Positions 1,448-62,932 of a DNA stretch of 64,000 nt are shown here, in pieces. Where the stretch lies: assembly GCA_022508265.1 (NCBI GenBank), contig JAFLVP010000003.1:39500-103499 (forward strand). The letters run 5' to 3'. The translations under genes and the position numbers were made by a program. The notes beneath the pieces are model-generated. The model made no database searches. It saw only the letters and a list, made by a program, of their open reading frames with translations, and had not been told where the DNA came from. Numbering within the stretch: the stretch's first letter is position 1; every line of letters begins with the position of its first letter. The DNA comes from Clostridiales bacterium. GTDB lineage: Bacteria > Bacillota > Clostridia > Christensenellales > Borkfalkiaceae.

Positions 1448-1516
1448 GTTATTCCCCTTTGTATCTTTCCCCTTTGTAAAAGTAAAGCTCCCGCGCATAA
1501 CGGGAGCATTTATAAA

Positions 1517-3354: not shown

Positions 3355-3941
3355 TTTTTTGTAAAGCTCCTGCGGTGAACGGGGCATATTCCCGCCCGTT
3401 TTATGGCGTCTATGTGAGTTTTGGTTCCGTAGCCCTTGTGCTTTGCAAAGCCGTATTCGGGGTAAAGCCTGTCGTATTCGTCCATGACGGCGTCCCTGTA
3501 AACCTTGGCGATAATGGACGCTGCGCCTATCGAATAGGACAAGCTGTCGCCCTTTACTATACTCATCTGCTCATAGGGAATATCCAGCGTCATATTGCCG
3601 TCCGTCAGCACGAAATCAGGCTTAATTTTAAGGCTTTCAACCGCATTTTTCATACACAGCTTTGTTGCCTCTAAAATGTTTATTTCGTCAATAATTTGCG
3701 GTTCAATGCGGCATATTGCGTGGGCAATTGCCTTTTTTTGAATTTGCTCCGCCAGCGTTTCACGCTTTTTTGCGGACAGTTTTTTGCTGTCGTCAACCCC
3801 CTCGATTATATCGTCAAGGGGCATAATTACGGCGGCGCAGACGACGGGCCCCGCAAGCGGACCTCTGCCCACCTCGTCAACTCCGCAGATATATTTTGCT
3901 CCCCTTTCAAGGAGTTCTCTTTCGTAAATAAGCTTATCCAT
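3345..3941 (-). CDS. rnhB: Ribonuclease HII
   Basis: GVDEVGRGPLAGPVV motif. ORF-track start 3995 is a TTG inside a repeat element. The ATG at 3941 (MDKLIYERE...) gives the usual N-terminus, but the start remains uncertain. Confidence 0.9.
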   Translation of the reverse strand: MDKLIYERELLERGAKYICGVDEVGRGPLAGPVVCAAVIMPLDDIIEGVDDSKKLSAKKRETLAEQIQKKAIAHAICRIEPQIIDEINILEATKLCMKNAVESLKIKPDFVLTDGNMTLDIPYEQMSIVKGDSLSYSIGAASIIAKVYRDAVMDEYDRLYPEYGFAKHKGYGTKTHIDAIKRAGICPVHRRSFTKKWQ

Positions 3942-3951
3942 ATCAAAATGT

Positions 3952-4136
3952 CTTACGGCGCAAGCAGAACCACGCTTCTGCGCCCGCGCACTCAATTTGC
4001 GAATACTTTCGCCTCAGTGGAAGTGAATGCCCGCATTTTTATTATTGTTTGCCCTTATAGAATGCGGGCAGAGAAACTTAGTTTCTCAAACTCACGGAAA
4101 ATATGCTTCGCAGAATAGAAGCTTATTTTCGTGAAC
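3952..4136 (+). repeat. Family-1 mosaic hairpin repeat, full copy
   Basis: ACGGCGCAAGCAGAACCACGCTTCTGCG...TTGTTTGCCCTTATAGAATGCGGGCA GAGAAACTTAGTTTCTC ...TCACGGAAAATATGCTTCGCAGAATAGAAGCTTATTTTCGTGAAC. Close to the copy at 27061. Confidence 0.92.
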
Positions 4137-11372: not shown

Positions 11373-11586
11373 TTCACAAAAATTTAATTCTATTCTGCGA
11401 ATTGAATTTTTCGTGATTTGGGGAACTAAGTTCCCCTTTACGCGATTTTTAAGTGCAAACGATTATAAAATTACGCAAATTCCCCTTGGGTTCGGGAGGG
11501 AAAGCGCAGTTTTCCCGCCCGCCATGGAGTGTTTTAAAAAGTTCACAAAAATATGCCTCTATTCTGCGCCGACTATTTTTGTGAAC
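11373..11586 (-). repeat. Family-1 mosaic hairpin repeat, variant with a tail hairpin at both ends
   Basis: TTCACAAAAATTTAATTCTATTCTGCGAATTGAATTTTTCGTGA, GGGGAACTAAGTTCCCC, ... and a second TTCACAAAAATA...TATTTTTGTGAA (perfect 12-bp stem) at 11541-11586. Confidence 0.85.
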
Positions 11587-11657
11587 AGGCTTTTTTTATG
11601 TTGCAATTTAGCTTTTTGTTTGATATAATCATATAGAAGTTTATATACGGAGATTAT

Positions 11658-12384: not shown

Positions 12385-12491
12385 CCTTGGATTAGAAACG
12401 AGTAGTTCAAGGCGCACGAGGCTTTCCGACACGAGTTTACTACCCGTAAATGAGTTAGGAAAACGCAGAAATGCGCAGTTTATAATACAAG
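12385..12491 (+). repeat. Family-2 long imperfect palindromic element (subtype shared with 62815)
   Basis: CCTTGGATTAGAAAC...GAGTTTAC-TACCC-GTAAATGA...GTTTATAATACAAG. About 90% identical to 62815-62932. Confidence 0.85.
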
Positions 12492-27014: not shown

Positions 27015-27060
27015 CCGTTTCCCCCAACAGCCAAAAAGTAGCTTTTGATTTTTTAAATAT

Positions 27061-27245
27061 TTAACGGCGCAAGCAGAACCACGCTTCTGCGACCGCGCAC
27101 CCGATTTGCGAATACCTTCGCCTCGGTGGAAGTGAATGCCCGCAATTCATCACTTGTTTGCCCTTAAATATTGCGGGCAGAGAAACTTAGTTTCTCAAAA
27201 TCACGAAAATTTGTTTTCGCAGAATAGAAAACAAATTTTGTGAAC
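27061..27245 (+). repeat. Family-1 mosaic hairpin repeat, best-preserved full copy
   Basis: H1 GCAGAA/TTCTGC, H2 GCGAA-TACC-TTCGC, H3 TGCCCGCAAT...ATTGCGGGCA, H4 GAGAAAC-TTA-GTTTCTC, H5 TCACGAAAATTTGTTTTC-GCAGAATA-GAAAACAAATTTTGTGA. Confidence 0.93.
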
Positions 27246-27250
27246 TTATT

Positions 27251-28330
27251 TTACTCTTCACCGGCAAGCTGGGCTTCGCGTTCCGCAACAGTCAAAGCCT
27301 CTATCATACTGTCTATATCGCCCATTATAAATTCCGTAAGGTTGTACTGCGAAAGCCCTATTCTGTGGTCTGTGACTCTGCCCTGCGGGAAGTTGTAAGT
27401 TCTTATTCTCTCGCTCCGATCCCCCGTACCGACGAGTGATTTTCTGTGTTCGTCGTACGCCGAGCGGTTCTGCGAATTGTAGTAATCGTACAGCCTCGAA
27501 CGCAGCACTTTAAACGCCTTGTCCTTGTTTTTAAGCTGACTTCTCTCGTCCTGACAGGTTACCACGAGCCCCGTGGGGAAGTGAGTAATGCGGATGGCGG
27601 TCTCCGTCTTGTTTACCTTCTGTCCGCCCGCGCCCGAGGAGCGGTATACGTCCACCCTTATGTCCTCGTCCTTTATCTCAACTTCGACGTCTTCCGCCTC
27701 TGGAAGCACCGCAACCGTTGCGGTGGAGGTATGAACCCTGCCTTGCGACTCCGTTTCCGGAACGCGCTGAACGCGGTGAACTCCGCTCTCGAATTTGAGC
27801 TGTTTGTAGGCGTTTTTGCCGCTGACGTTAAAGACAACCTCCTTGACTCCGCCCAGCTCGGTTTGGTTTAAATCTACAATCTCTGCTTTGAGTCTGTGCC
27901 TCTCGCAGTAGTTCAAATACATTCTGTACAGCTCGTAGGCAAAGAGCGCCGCCTCCTCGCCGCCTGCACCGCCCCTTATTTCTACGATACAGTTTCTGTC
28001 GTCGTTTTTGTCCTTGGGAAGGAGCAGAATTTTGAGCTCTTCTCTTAAAGATGCAAGCTTTTCACGGCAGGAGTACACCTCCTCCGAAAACATTGCCCTC
28101 ATCTCGGGGTCGCTCTCCGTCTTTTCCGCCTCCTCGGCGCCTGAAAGCTGTCTTTCGCACTCGGCGTATTCGGCATACTTTAATGCCGTTTCCGAAATTT
28201 CCGCCTGCGCTTTTGCAATCTCCGTCCAAAGCTTTGTATCGGAAATGATTGCGGGGTCGCTCATTTGCTTTGTGAGCTCCCCGTATCTCGCGTAAATATC
28301 TGCAAGTTTTTCAATCATCTTGTCCGCCAT
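27251..28330 (-). CDS. prfA: Peptide chain release factor 1
   Basis: 359 aa. PET tripeptide (VQRVPETE), which is RF1-specific, plus the GGQ motif (SGAGGQKVNK). Confidence 0.97.
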   Translation of the reverse strand: MADKMIEKLADIYARYGELTKQMSDPAIISDTKLWTEIAKAQAEISETALKYAEYAECERQLSGAEEAEKTESDPEMRAMFSEEVYSCREKLASLREELKILLLPKDKNDDRNCIVEIRGGAGGEEAALFAYELYRMYLNYCERHRLKAEIVDLNQTELGGVKEVVFNVSGKNAYKQLKFESGVHRVQRVPETESQGRVHTSTATVAVLPEAEDVEVEIKDEDIRVDVYRSSGAGGQKVNKTETAIRITHFPTGLVVTCQDERSQLKNKDKAFKVLRSRLYDYYNSQNRSAYDEHRKSLVGTGDRSERIRTYNFPQGRVTDHRIGLSQYNLTEFIMGDIDSMIEALTVAEREAQLAGEE

Positions 28331-37144: not shown

Positions 37145-37213
37145 AAGTTTCTCCTTTAGTATTTTAATATATTATTTTATTTTTGTTTTTAGTATTCAAT
37201 AAGTAATTTTTTA

Positions 37214-37496
37214 AACGCTTTACGGCGCAAGGAGGGTTTTTCTCCGCCCGCGCACCCAATTTGCGAACGCTTGCGCAGAATAGCTTTTAATTTTTAAACT
37301 TCTCAAACGCTTTACGGCGCGCCCCAAAATCACACTTTTGGGGATGCGCACCCAATTTGCGCATACCTGCGCTCAAAAGAAAGGAATTGCCGTAATTCTA
37401 TGTTTGTTTGCCCTTAAAAATTGCGACAAGGGAAACATTGTTTCCCAAACCTCACGAAAATTTGCTTGCGCAGAATAGCAAGAAAATTTTGTGAAT
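37214..37496 (+). repeat. Family-1 mosaic hairpin repeat with a duplicated head module
   Basis: CGCTTTACGGCGC occurs twice (37216 and 37302). H1 variants GGAG/CTCC and CCCCAAAA/TTTTGGGG, H2 GCGCA-TACC-TGCGC, H4 GGGAAAC-ATT-GTTTCCC, H5 ...GCAGAATAG...TTTTGTGAA. Confidence 0.88.
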
Positions 37497-37499
37497 ATT

Positions 37500-37874
37500 T
37501 TACGGCCAATCCTCGCCGCCGTTGGGGGGCTTGCAGCGAATAATTCTGCGAATTCCCTTGGTTACGCCGACTATGATGCCGTATTTTTTGATTGAAAGTA
37601 TCATATACGTCGAGCAGGTGGGATGAAATCTGCACTCCTGCCTTATCGACATAGGAGCGTACGCCTTGTACATAAGCACGCAGCCGATGAGAAAACACCT
37701 GAACGGCATATAAGTTAAGGCGATTACGACAAGCAATTCTATCCAAACGCTTACGGGAAGCAGTTTGAGTCCGACAATAACGCCGAACGCCGTCCAGAAT
37801 ATTGCCAGAACACCTATTTGCAACCAAAAATAAATTATTAAGTCTTTTACGCGTACTTCGCGGATCTGTTTCAT
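37500..37874 (-). CDS. yidD: YidD-family membrane protein insertion efficiency factor with an N-terminal two-TM extension
   Basis: C-terminus ECRFHPTCSTYMILSIKKYGIIVGVTKGIRRIIRCKP is the YidD signature. 124 aa, against my recollection of ~70-85 aa for typical YidD proteins. Confidence 0.8.
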   Translation of the reverse strand: MKQIREVRVKDLIIYFWLQIGVLAIFWTAFGVIVGLKLLPVSVWIELLVVIALTYMPFRCFLIGCVLMYKAYAPMSIRQECRFHPTCSTYMILSIKKYGIIVGVTKGIRRIIRCKPPNGGEDWP

Positions 37875-42391: not shown

Positions 42392-42515
42392 TAAAACACA
42401 GAGAGGCAAGCAAGACAAGGAGCGCGCGGATATGTCGACGGGAGCGTACACAGAAGTACGTGACCGAGACATAACGCAAGCGCGACACCGTATTGCGACG
42501 CCTATATGTGTTTTA
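42392..42515 (+). repeat. Family-2 long imperfect palindromic element (rpmJ-rpsM spacer)
   Basis: TAAAACACAGAGAGGCAAGCAAGAC...ATGTCGACGGGAGCGTAC-ACAGAA-GTACGTGACCGAGACAT...GTATTGCGACGCCTATATGTGTTTTA. The last 3 nt are the rpmJ stop codon. Confidence 0.85.
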
Positions 42516-46060: not shown

Positions 46061-46176
46061 TCAGTTAAGATACGAGCAAGACAAGGCGTGCGAGGAAAAC
46101 CCGAGGGAGTTTACTATAACGTAAATGACCGAGAGTTGCCACAGCACAACGCAGTATTGCGAAGTATATTAGCTGA
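46061..46176 (+). repeat. Family-2 long imperfect palindromic element (rplO-secY spacer)
   Basis: TCAGTTAAGATACGAGCAAGAC...CCGAGGGAGTTTAC-TATAAC-GTAAATGACCGAG...GTATTGCGAAGTATATTAGCTGA. The 3' arm overlaps the last two codons and the stop of rplO. Confidence 0.85.
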
Positions 46177-47773: not shown

Positions 47774-47888
47774 GTTATCAGTCGCGCGCAAGACAAGGCG
47801 AGTGAGCATTTTTTTGAGGGAGCGTACACAGAAGTACGCGACCGAAAAAAAGCGGAACTCAACGCTGTATTGTGCGATGAATGATAAC
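47774..47888 (+). repeat. Family-2 long imperfect palindromic element (rplF-rplR spacer)
   Basis: GTTATCAGTCGCGCGCAAGAC...CATTTTTTTGAGGGAGCGTAC-ACAGAA-GTACGCGACCGAAAAAAAG...GTATTGTGCGATGAATGATAAC. Confidence 0.85.
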
Positions 47889-50692: not shown

Positions 50693-50807
50693 ATTCAGAG
50701 ATACGAGTTAGGCGAGGCGCACGAGCACCGACCGCAGGGAGTTTACATTGAGGTAAATGACCAAGGCGGCGCGGAGTGCAACAAAGCATAACGACGTATA
50801 TATGAAT
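50693..50807 (+). repeat. Family-2 long imperfect palindromic element (rpsQ-rplN spacer)
   Basis: ATTCAGAGATACGAGTTAGGC...CCGCAGGGAGTTTAC-ATTGAG-GTAAATGACCAAGGCGG...GCATAACGACGTATATATGAAT. Ends 1-2 nt before the rpsQ stop codon. Confidence 0.85.
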
Positions 50808-55503: not shown

Positions 55504-55689
55504 CTCACGAAATTTTATTTCTTGATGCGAATTAAAATTTCCGTGACTTGGGAGGCGCCGCCTCCCTTTACGCGATTTTAAGGGCACACCATTATATACT
55601 CGCGTAAATTCCCTCTGCTGAGGCGCAGGTTTGCGCAAATTGAGTTGCGCGGCGGAAAAACGTGGTTTTCCTTGCGCCGTAAAGCGTTG
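55504..55689 (-). repeat. Family-1 mosaic hairpin repeat, divergent full copy inside the S10 operon (rpsJ-rplC spacer)
   Basis: TCACGAAATTTTA...TAAAATTTCCGTGA, GGGAGGCG/CGCCTCCC, TTTACGCGA...TCGCGTAAA, GCGCA/TGCGC, GGAAAA-CGTGG-TTTTCC, GCGCCGTAAAGCG. Confidence 0.85.
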
Positions 55690-55809
55690 AGAATGTTCGG
55701 TTATTTTAATTGCTCAATAATAAATTTCGTATATTTCAGATACCGCGCCGCGCCGTCCCGCCGTTTCCGTCGTCTGCGCTCCGTAGAGTATCTTTATTGA
55801 CTTAATTGA

Positions 55810-58691: not shown

Positions 58692-58695
58692 TACT

Positions 58696-59643: not shown

Positions 59644-60741
59644 TTATACTCCGAATAATTCGGCGAGCTCTTCGCCGTCGATTTTGCTGCCTATTACGCA
59701 CAGTCTGCCCGTGTACGCCGCTACCCCGTCGCGCACGTCGATTTCGCCGGGGATATAGTCGAAATGTATCCACTTATTATCCTCGCCCGCAACTATGCCC
59801 TTTGCGCGGAGTACCGTGCCGTAGGTAACCGCGTCCGAAAGCTTGGAAAGGGCTGTTTGTATCTGCTCTTTAGAAAACTTCTTGCCGGTCTCTATGCCCC
59901 AACTTGTGAACACCTCGTCGGCGTGATGATGGTGTTCATGTTCGTGGTCATGGTGGCAACAATGCCCGTCGTGGCCGTGATGGTGTTCGTGGTGACAGTG
60001 TTCGTGTTCTTCGTCATCGTCGTGATGACAACAATGCCCGTCGTGGTCGTGATGGTGTTCGCCGTGACAGCACTCACCGCCGTGGTGGTGCCCGTGGTGG
60101 CAGTGCTCGTGCTCCTCTTCAAGCTCTTTCAATTCGTCCGCGAGGGTGCGCGAGTGCTCCATAGCCTCAAGAATTTGCTTGCCGTCGAGCTCGTTCCAAG
60201 CGGTGGTAACAATTGTTGCGTGTGCGTTGTGCGCCTTTACGAGTTCGACTGCGGTAGCAAGCTTTTCCGCCGAGGCAACGTCCGTATGGCTGAACACTAT
60301 GCAAGCGGCGGTTTCAATCTGGTCGTTGAAAAATTCGCCGAAGTTCTTCATATACATCTTGCACTTGGCGGCGTCCACTACAGCCGTGTAGGAATTTACA
60401 GTGCAGTTTTCAAGCTGTGCGCTCTCAACCGCACGGATAACGTCGGAGAGCTTGCCCACGCCCGAGGGCTCAATTAAAATCCTGTCTGGGTTGTATTCTT
60501 GTTGAACCTTTTGAAGCGCCTTTGAAAAATCGCCCACGAGCGAACAGCAGATACAACCCGAGTTGAGTTCGTTAATCTTTATGCCCGCCTCCGCCAAAAA
60601 TCCGCCGTCGACGCCTATCTCGCCGAATTCGTTCTCAATCAGAACAAGGTTTTCGCCCGCGTACGCCTCTTTTATGAGCTTTTTTATAAGCGTAGTCTTG
60701 CCCGCGCCCAAAAATCCCGAAAAAATATCAATCTTAGTCAT
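59644..60741 (-). CDS. CobW/COG0523-family G3E GTPase (putative zinc metallochaperone) with a ~70-aa His/Cys-rich insert
   Basis: 365 aa. GFLGAGKTT, the CICCSL metal motif, IEPSG. Insert: EHEHCHHGHHHGGECCHGEHHHDHDGHCCHHDDDEEHEHCHHEHHHGHDGHCCHHDHEHEHHHH. Confidence 0.88.
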   Translation of the reverse strand: MTKIDIFSGFLGAGKTTLIKKLIKEAYAGENLVLIENEFGEIGVDGGFLAEAGIKINELNSGCICCSLVGDFSKALQKVQQEYNPDRILIEPSGVGKLSDVIRAVESAQLENCTVNSYTAVVDAAKCKMYMKNFGEFFNDQIETAACIVFSHTDVASAEKLATAVELVKAHNAHATIVTTAWNELDGKQILEAMEHSRTLADELKELEEEHEHCHHGHHHGGECCHGEHHHDHDGHCCHHDDDEEHEHCHHEHHHGHDGHCCHHDHEHEHHHHADEVFTSWGIETGKKFSKEQIQTALSKLSDAVTYGTVLRAKGIVAGEDNKWIHFDYIPGEIDVRDGVAAYTGRLCVIGSKIDGEELAELFGV

Positions 60742-61469: not shown

Positions 61470-61596
61470 ATTCCACCTCTTTTTCTTTTATTTTATAATA
61501 AAATCGGCAAAAAATCAAGTAAAATTTGTTAAAACAAAAAGCACTCTCATGAAGGAGTGCAAATTATATTATCGTTTGCTATTAAATATTGCAGCA

Positions 61597-61663
61597 AGGG
61601 GAACTTGGTTCCCCTGATTACGAAAAATTCCTTACGCAGAACAGTAAGGAATTTTTCGTGAAC
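61597..61663 (+). repeat. Family-1 repeat, partial copy (H4 plus H5 only)
   Basis: GGGGAAC-TTG-GTTCCCC, then TTACGAAAAATTCCTTAC-GCAGAACA-GTAAGGAATTTTTCGTGAA. Confidence 0.8.
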
Positions 61664-62688: not shown

Positions 62689-62806
62689 GCAAAAAATATG
62701 GTTTGCGGAATTGCTTGCGGTGCGTCAAGCAATTTTTAAGTCGGTAAGCAAAAAATATAAATTGCGGAATTGCTTGCGGTGCGCGCGAGCGTTTTTAAGC
62801 TTGTAC
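62689..62806 (+). repeat. 59-bp tandem direct repeat, 2 copies (plus a partial third upstream)
   Basis: GCAAAAAATATGGTTTGCGGAATTGCTTGCGGTGCGTCAAGCAATTTTTAAGTCGGTAA versus GCAAAAAATATAAATTGCGGAATTGCTTGCGGTGCGCGCGAGCGTTTTTAAGCTTGTAC. Confidence 0.8.
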
Positions 62807-62814
62807 AAAAAAAT

Positions 62815-62932
62815 CCTTGGATTAGAAACAAGCAGTTCCAGGCGCGCGAGGCTTTCCGACACGAGTTTACTACCCGTAAATGAGTTAGGAAAATGTAGCG
62901 CAACGTCGAAATGCGAAGTTTATAACCCAAGG
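62815..62932 (+). repeat. Family-2 long imperfect palindromic element (subtype shared with 12385)
   Basis: CCTTGGATTAGAAAC...GAGTTTAC-TACCC-GTAAATGA...GTTTATAACCCAAGG. The outer arms pair at 13 of 15 positions. Confidence 0.85.

Follow-up and report, generated by a model that had tools for sequence, protein, structure and literature searches.

The window, a 64,000-nt stretch of Clostridiales DNA, contains a real family of non-coding repeats, each about 190 nt long with an 11-nt lead-in, that have six covarying helices and lie between housekeeping genes. The family is apparently undescribed and resembles BOX, BIME and bcr1 elements rather than a new kind of system. Compared with an earlier note drawn from the letters of this DNA, what is new here is above all the tight placement of the repeats at coding boundaries, and further their turnover between relatives and a weak 11-nt inverted similarity of their termini. 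To our knowledge, small structured repeats have been well studied in Proteobacteria, streptococci and bacilli, and hardly at all in uncultured gut Clostridia represented only by metagenome-assembled genomes (MAGs). Because the repeats make up ~2% of the window and are present in core operons (S10, ruvCAB, ylxM-ffh), they will influence how operons are predicted, sRNAs and riboswitches discovered and MAGs assembled in this clade. Unusually, the repeats combine very strong covariation with loops that are invariant and with a position between a stop codon and a ribosome-binding site (RBS) that is exact to the nucleotide, which makes them a tractable case for asking whether such a repeat is a parasite or a host tool; alleles that occur naturally in four states (empty, filled, inverted, remnant) have been identified for comparison.

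Architecture and covariation of the repeat

Repeat search joined seven regions of the window in both orientations, 2018–2262(−), 3926–4136(+), 11373–11588(−), 27035–27245(+), 37209–37498(+), 55504–55693(−) and 61562–61661(+), and all seven were recovered by nhmmer as well as by a covariance model (CM), bearing out the earlier proposal of a repeat family with copies in both orientations. Five full or near-full copies and further partial modules are present (Table 1), at a density of ~1 copy per 8 kb. The word TCACGRAAA, for which 1.6 occurrences are expected, is found 11 times in the window, nine of them within copies. All loci listed in the earlier note stand, with changes to their extent: the copy at 11373–11586 is not full, since it has no junction or H2 and includes a separate H5-only module (11537–11584); the repeat at 37214–37496 is not a single copy, consisting of an internally deleted copy (37213–37296) followed by a full one (37305–37502); and the partial copy at 61597–61663 is indeed partial, with its true start at 61562, in the H3 loop. 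The modularity claimed there is seen in tail-only, head-plus-tail and H3-to-tail copies, in tandem arrays and in module swaps.

Table 1 Copies of the repeat in the window, and elements of the focal copy from head to tail.
Feature	Position	Strand	Evidence and context
Full copy	2018–2206	−	CM 210.5 bits; between unknown 230-aa gene and rplS, co-directional with the genes
H5-only module	2215–2260	−	Repeat search, nhmmer; directly after stop codon of gene 2261–2953(−)
Full copy	3952–4136	+	CM 224.5 bits; GTPase gene (stop codon 4141) on one side, rnhB start on the other; antisense to both
Copy without junction and H2	11373–11520	−	CM; divergent region between Na+/H+ exchanger gene and pyrH
H5-only module	11537–11584	−	nhmmer, CM; upstream of the head of the 11373–11520 copy
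Focal full copy	27061–27245	+	Between prfA stop codon and DtxR-family repressor gene, antisense to both
Internally deleted copy	37213–37296	+	nhmmer, CM; head to H2 5′ arm fused at shared TGCGC to H5 loop and 3′ arm
Full copy	37305–37496	+	CM 204.7 bits, Pfam; tail adjoins yidD stop codon (37500), antisense to yidD
Full copy	55504–55689	−	CM 178.3 bits, Pfam Ribosomal_S10; S10 operon, rpsJ/rplC gap, co-directional; tail followed by GGAGG and rplC ATG
5′-truncated decaying copy, H3 loop to tail	61562–61663	+	nhmmer model positions 90–195; adjoins PPIase gene stop codon (61670)
Focal copy: unpaired lead-in AAATATTTAAC (family consensus AAATAATTTAC)	27055–27065	+	Conserved
Focal copy: P1 (27067–27070 GCGC / 27095–27098 GCGC) around H1	27067–27098	+	Double changes in 4/4 P1 pairs; 98.6% of cells pair
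Focal copy: H1 (27073–27078 GCAGAA / 27085–27090 TTCTGC), loop CCACGC	within 27067–27098	+	Double changes in 6/6 pairs; 94.2% of cells pair
Focal copy: junction ACCCGATTT (consensus ACCCAATTT), then H2	27099–27121	+	Columns invariant or near-invariant
Focal copy: H2 (27108–27112 GCGAA / 27117–27121 TTCGC), loop TACC	within 27099–27121	+	4/5 pairs compensatory
Focal copy: conserved linker CTCGGTGGAAGTGAA	27122–27136	+	Extra covarying pair just after H2 (C-G, G-C or T-A); mutual-information scan, alignment columns 67/72
Focal copy: H3 (27137–27147 / 27169–27179), 21-nt loop	27137–27179	+	Double changes in 11/11 pairs; 95.7% of cells pair
Focal copy: H3 loop block TTGTTTGCCCTTAAA	27154–27168	+	Conserved across family
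Focal copy: H4, GAGAAAC-TTA-GTTTCTC	27180–27196	+	6/7 pairs compensatory
Focal copy: H5 tail, TCACGAAAATTTGTTTTC / loop GCAGAATA / GAAAACAAATTTTGTGA, then AC	27201–27245	+	15/16 pairs compensatory; base TCAC/GTGA nearly invariant

The stem and loop sequences given in the earlier note are present, but its five hairpins have to be raised to six helices because an outer helix, P1 (GCGC/GCGC), encloses H1. Conservation begins ~13–16 nt ahead of P1 in a position profile of 77 copies, and the lead-in of other copies often includes the stop codon of an upstream co-oriented gene. At the opposite end, the focal H5 ends 6 nt short of the prfA stop codon (27251–27253, minus strand; prfA identified by Pfam). 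The conservation of the loops, and of the junctions with them, was confirmed in the columns of the cross-genome alignment, where the unpaired blocks ACCCAATTTGCG, GTTTGCCCTTAAA, TCACGAAAA and CGCAGAATAG, and also TTTYGTGA, are near-invariant.

The focal copy (27055–27251) folds at −64.7 kcal/mol, with z = −6.4 against dinucleotide shuffles, and its opposite strand at −66.2 kcal/mol (z = −4.5), the two folding about equally well, as Watson-Crick hairpins should. Among the six window copies alone, compensatory changes are found in 21 of 49 pairs. We built the covariance model from these six copies and matched it against the window, ~12 Christensenellaceae/Clostridia MAGs and metagenome contigs, which yielded 109 strong matches, 96 of them distinct. 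Across the 96 distinct copies, 95.6% of cells pair, compared to 73.7% in shuffles, 46 of the 49 pairs show double changes, and double-change cells number 985 against 288 ± 15 expected; when the partners were slid by 1–3 columns, pairing fell to 36–53%. Because this alignment is fitted to the covariance model, it was checked by two other routes: a structure-blind MAFFT alignment of 39 copies, in which 26 of 35 predicted pairs were compensatory, and an unsupervised mutual-information scan, which put the model's pairs at the top. Together, these statistics bear out the earlier claim of selection on the fold. The stems drift freely in sequence yet stay complementary; the junctions, and the loops of H3 and H5, hardly vary.

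G:U wobbles outnumber A:C wobbles (91 vs 31) in the same direction in every gene context, with four helix-terminal positions dominating the count; internal pairs only give 32 G:U and 16 A:C. This asymmetry weakly favours the head-to-tail strand as the folding strand. Loops are equally conserved in antisense and sense copies.

Other repeats were also seen. A second, unrelated structured family occupies window positions 12385–12490, 42402–42505, 46068–46170, 47780–47885, 50699–50800 and 62815–62925 (all + as aligned), in intergenic gaps of the ribosomal-protein and pyrH-frr regions. It is a rod-like hairpin of ~105 nt with a conserved core GAGTTTAC...GTAAATGA (or GAGCGTAC...GTACG), for which RNAalifold on the six copies gave 27 pairs, 17 of them compensatory; there was no Rfam match. 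A reverse-complement relative of this second family forms an ~190-nt insertion between a yicC-like gene and gmk in locus L031 relative to L032. The PPIase gene and rplL are separated by a gap that holds two 36-nt direct repeats (62689–62724 and 62748–62783), 59 nt apart with 92% identity, just upstream of a second-family copy. Two 72-nt tandem direct repeats with 82% identity (59927–60070) are found inside a CobW-family GTPase gene (59644–60741, minus strand); they are rich in CAT/CAC on the coding strand and therefore probably encode a His-rich metal-binding stretch. The MAG HAN107, which is ~87–95% identical to the window, carries at L022:583–852 (window 1453–1477) a ~245-nt insert with ~25-nt terminal inverted repeats (AAGTTTAGGAGAGCCGAGCTTGCAAGG...) that is missing from the window and has the look of a conventional MITE, with no relation to the multi-hairpin family.

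Distribution, placement and turnover

Genomes were scanned, one per species, with a composite pattern running from the H3 loop to the H5 base, and only 8-kb loci were taken. Of 34 loci obtained, 31 came from ~12 MAGs labelled Christensenellaceae, Christensenella, Clostridiales or Clostridia, and the remaining three were chance matches with no model match. The H5 pattern found 52 more metagenome loci and no viral contigs, and blastn against plasmid and phage collections returned nothing similar. Since the loci were chosen by presence of the repeat, occupancy rates are rough. These matches confine the repeat to one clade of Christensenellales-like Clostridia, uncultured and from the gut. Confinement to the window, which the earlier note had named as a point against its reading, is not what we found, given the matches in ~12 MAGs and in metagenome loci. 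Rfam 15 gave no matches for the whole window at gathering score; when E values up to 10 were admitted, the repeat itself scored at best 18 bits, to unrelated eukaryotic snoRNA and miRNA models, so the view that no Rfam family is involved holds at both levels. In the literature on Christensenellaceae or Clostridia repeats, no specific description of such a repeat was found.

The window is a core housekeeping region that includes rplS, trmD, rimM, ffh, pyrH, frr, dxr, tsf, rpsB, prfA, rpoA, the S10/spc/alpha operons, secY, fusA and rplJL. Pfam assigned ordinary housekeeping or DUF-type domains to 43 of 50 window ORFs and left seven unmatched; no transposase was found among these 50, in agreement with the first reading of the window, and the strictly intergenic position of the copies likewise holds against the ORF map and Pfam. 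Among proteins near copies, none was recurrent in the first 34 loci and none looked like a transposase, and neither TnpA nor TnpB was seen in 650 kb of loci.

Among 92 evaluable tails, 43 lie near a converging stop codon, at a distance of 1–8 nt (two at 17–19 nt), and 28 lie directly before an RBS, with the start codon 9–29 nt away (mostly 9–14); several of the other 21 present the same situations with weaker signals, or have another copy next to them. The tail adjoins a coding boundary in ~77% or more of copies, and the 43 antisense or converging and 28 sense tails confirm that both orientations relative to genes occur. Distances from head to gene are looser, and in 18 copies the upstream stop codon lies inside the A-rich lead-in. 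The genes downstream of copies (rplC, ffh, valS, ileS, ruvC, ruvA, iscU, rpoZ, der, gpsA) have unrelated functions; the consistent sense position and coherent gene set of a riboswitch or cis-regulatory leader were not found. Several sense copies have a sigma-70-like promoter 10–45 nt upstream of the head, and these copies are therefore 5′ leaders. A scan of the focal copy found no promoter at its head and no terminator on H5 or P1/H1 on either strand. Surviving copies lie almost exclusively between a stop codon and the next RBS, or just past a converging stop codon, in either orientation and inside housekeeping operons. The rpsJ-rplC junction, which houses one of the window copies, is normally very short.

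The earlier note had advised a search for empty sites, and true empty and filled pairs exist at window 58694, ylxM-ffh and gmk-rpoZ. Position 58694 is empty in the window, and the HAN107 site (L009:7290–7392) has a 5′-truncated copy, 2 nt from a stop codon and 91.6% identical to another HAN107 copy. At gmk-rpoZ, the empty allele (L032) reads TAAGGAG and the filled one (L031) reads TAA-element-AAGGAG, and ylxM-ffh, filled in L020 and empty in the window, has the same geometry. In these tight junctions, a single insertion point spares both genes. The partial copy at window 61562 is full-length at the orthologous HAN107 site. Elsewhere, deletion remnants of 35–50 nt have lost everything but the two extremities of the repeat; L005 and L010 were rejected as empty sites, both being such remnants.

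Copies are also reversed in place. The window block 2013–2262 (an H5-only module and a full copy) is inverted relative to HAN107 within collinear flanks, and the ruvC-ruvA copy is reversed between metagenome strains whose flanks are 98% identical. The reversed ruvC-ruvA alleles share only the H3/H4 core (~95% after inversion), their P1/H1, H2 and H5 core being other family variants, and more widely, relatives with 93–98% identical flanks hold same-site copies in opposite orientation with module swaps. A simple inverton was rejected, as the reversed alleles are not exact reverse complements and match only in the H3/H4 core. Tandem identical units are seen as well, with a copy number that differs between strains at 99% flank identity. 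Directly upstream of a gene start, L077:7186–7700 holds a tandem array in which a 5′-truncated unit precedes two full units, identical to each other and repeating every 194 nt; the array speaks for recent tandem duplication of the repeat. Between close relatives, copies are thus gained, lost, truncated, tandemly duplicated and reversed in place, and they swap modules.

Within genomes, copies have a mean identity of 73% and a maximum of 85% (non-tandem pairs), and a copy in one species resembles its orthologue in another no more closely than it resembles a random paralogue. Some sites are filled in several species: three genomes have a copy at the prfA 3′ end, and two have one at the ruvC 5′ end. 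The copy at 3952 and its HAN107 orthologue are identical at 151 of 152 aligned nt, with flanks that differ by 10.9% (1 difference vs 16.6 expected), and five strain pairs show no differences in their copies against ~11.7 expected from the flanks; in one strain pair, tandem copies evolve faster than their flanks. At ~20% flank divergence, same-site copies have diverged about like coding DNA and are still structurally intact, with compensated stems. This intactness could reflect either selection in place or replacement by intact paralogues.

Readings of spread and persistence

Our best reading, which we hold tentatively and at a little less than even confidence, is that the repeat is a non-autonomous, recombining structured element, recognised through its fold and loops by a factor from elsewhere in the genome and tolerated only between coding sequences. 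Such an element would spread by copy-and-recombine, and a protein acting in trans would bind its single-stranded fold and conserved loops, as RAYT does with REP/REPIN hairpins. Its precise placement would be what a compact genome tolerates, with an A-rich, stop-codon-rich head and an RBS-compatible tail allowing intergenic residence without gene damage. Resident copies would be co-transcribed with their neighbours and probably act as a stable RNA hairpin block (intercistronic punctuation or mRNA-end protection), a role that could explain the conservation of some of them. Against this reading, no mobilising enzyme was found, and since H5 is nearly confined to full repeats, no autonomous parent is seen either; target-site duplications are not consistent, the inverted similarity of the termini extends to only 8 of 11 positions, the strand bias of the wobble pairs is weak, and resident copies often show more conservation than would be expected of a neutral insertion. 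Without a non-tandem within-genome pair above 85% identity, the family is unlike a recently active MITE.

The in-place conservation makes a serious rival, in our view a less likely one, of the idea that the host selects the repeat as an RNA acting in cis. It would then be a portable module of intercistronic regions or UTRs, bound by a global RNA-binding protein or nuclease, that would set mRNA stability, processing or translation of the adjacent gene, would spread by duplication and gene conversion and would be kept by selection at each locus. Resident copies that can exceed their coding flanks in conservation (1 vs 16.6; 0 vs ~11.7) and that stay intact with compensated stems at ~20% flank divergence fit such a module well, as do the ~28 copies that end exactly at an RBS, several of them with an upstream promoter-like site, and the sites filled in several species (prfA 3′ end, ruvC 5′ end). 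However, antisense copies outnumber sense copies (43 to 28) with equally conserved loops, downstream genes share no theme, and relatives have empty sites or 35–50-nt remnants with no apparent replacement. The module would also have to accommodate same-site orientation flips between strains with 98% identical flanks, and one strain pair in which it evolves faster than the flanks. The mobile-repeat and host-RNA readings are not exclusive, because exaptation of some copies is likely.

In a further version, which we regard as improbable, the repeats would be a host-maintained genome-wide set of ~200–300 portable intercistronic modules, either a multi-hairpin REPIN-RAYT analogue or structured RNAs of a new class with a protein dedicated to binding them, with purifying selection at each locus, and with replacement or reversal re-tuning the adjacent housekeeping gene.

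Derivation from a single-strand HUH/Y1 transposon of IS200/IS605 type, as a PATE-like element or stand-alone guide-RNA scaffold that inserts 3′ of a short target such as TTWAC, is quite doubtful. TTWAC is indeed conserved immediately left of P1, but it belongs to the 11-nt block that travels with the repeat. The lack of clear inverted ends or duplications, the hairpins found at both extremities when H5 precedes the head, and the wobbles that weakly favour one strand whatever the gene orientation are compatible with this origin; against it, copies show no preferred orientation with respect to the direction of most genes, Rfam gave no IS605-orfB or HEARO match at E up to 10, and no TnpA or TnpB was seen near any copy.

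Still more doubtful is a classical MITE with short terminal inverted repeats, to which a DDE transposase would bind and move it by cut and paste. The lead-in AAAnAATTTAC and the reverse complement of tail plus flank, GTGAACTnTTT, do match at 8 of 11 positions, but the right half of this similarity, with its T-run after the tail, coincides with the stop codon of the neighbouring gene and is absent in sense-context copies. The longest word shared between a copy's own flanks is slightly above that of shuffled pairings (5.0 vs 4.5) at inconsistent positions, so that no duplication of fixed length or position emerges; we rejected the marginal excess as a target-site duplication, judging it an A+T-composition effect with inconsistent geometry. 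The target-site duplications that the earlier note had suggested looking for were accordingly found nowhere consistently, nor at the empty and filled pairs (window 58694, gmk-rpoZ). Pfam also revealed no transposase in the 50 scanned ORFs of the window, the first 34 loci yielded no recurrent protein, and near-identical dispersed copies do not exist.

A family of independently transcribed small RNA genes, to which the strongly conserved fold and loops and the U-rich stretch after H5 in antisense-context copies would be suited, is the most improbable reading, since the focal copy has no promoter-like site at its head and an H5 that does not score as an intrinsic terminator on either strand, heads can lie 0–20 nt from the neighbouring gene and so leave no room for a promoter, and ~1 copy per 8 kb is far above the density of known sRNA families.

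Other candidates were rejected on specific grounds. A conserved small ORF, suggested by an ATG after GTGA in some copies, fails on two counts, the lack of conservation of the ATG and the covariation of the stems; an uptake sequence was set aside with the H5 base word almost confined to the repeats; and 5′-truncation was not accepted as a retrotransposition signature, as 3′-truncated and internally deleted copies also exist.

Comparison with known repeat systems

BOX elements of Streptococcus pneumoniae (boxA-boxB(n)-boxC; PMC3184786) are modular like the repeat described here, with modules missing or repeated, and both are intergenic near gene ends, non-autonomous and endowed with a stable predicted fold; co-transcription with neighbours may be a further shared trait. 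The two have no sequence relationship and different host clades, six helices with conserved loops stand here against three boxes, and no candidate mobilising IS was found for the repeat here. The bcr1 elements of the Bacillus cereus group are ~155 nt long and transcribed, keep a multi-stem structure through compensatory changes, and have a distribution that is not conserved between related strains (PMC3184786). The compensated multi-stem structure and strain-variable distribution recur here, with more helices and much stronger loop conservation, whereas the 5-bp direct repeats that flank bcr1 were not found around our copies.

REP, BIME and REPIN sequences with their RAYT are likewise high-copy, extragenic, present in both orientations and in mosaics, located at gene 3′ ends and in operon interiors, and persistent over long times. 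By analogy with REP-RAYT, one enzyme encoded at another place in the genome would recognise a hairpin as its unit, and the H5-only modules behave like solitary REPs. REPs are 20–40-nt G+C-rich palindromes with a GTAG or CGTC tag (PMC3733652); H5, in contrast, is 44 nt, A+T-rich and untagged, and begins TCACG, and the full unit is ~5 times longer. SPRITE and terminator-like repeats (PMC3184786) share the bias to 3′ ends of converging genes. The G+C-rich stem followed by a U-run that marks an intrinsic terminator was, however, found on neither H5 nor P1/H1 on either strand, and one third of the copies here lie in 5′ leaders. Integron attC sites and cassettes differ too, as the head of the repeat does not pair with the tail, H5 pairs with itself, and the flanking genes are syntenic core genes.

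As it departs from each named family in at least one defining trait, the repeat is a new family with its own architecture, and its high copy number, extragenic location in both orientations, mosaics and tandems, strain turnover and site dispensability group it with BOX, bcr1 and REP/BIME.
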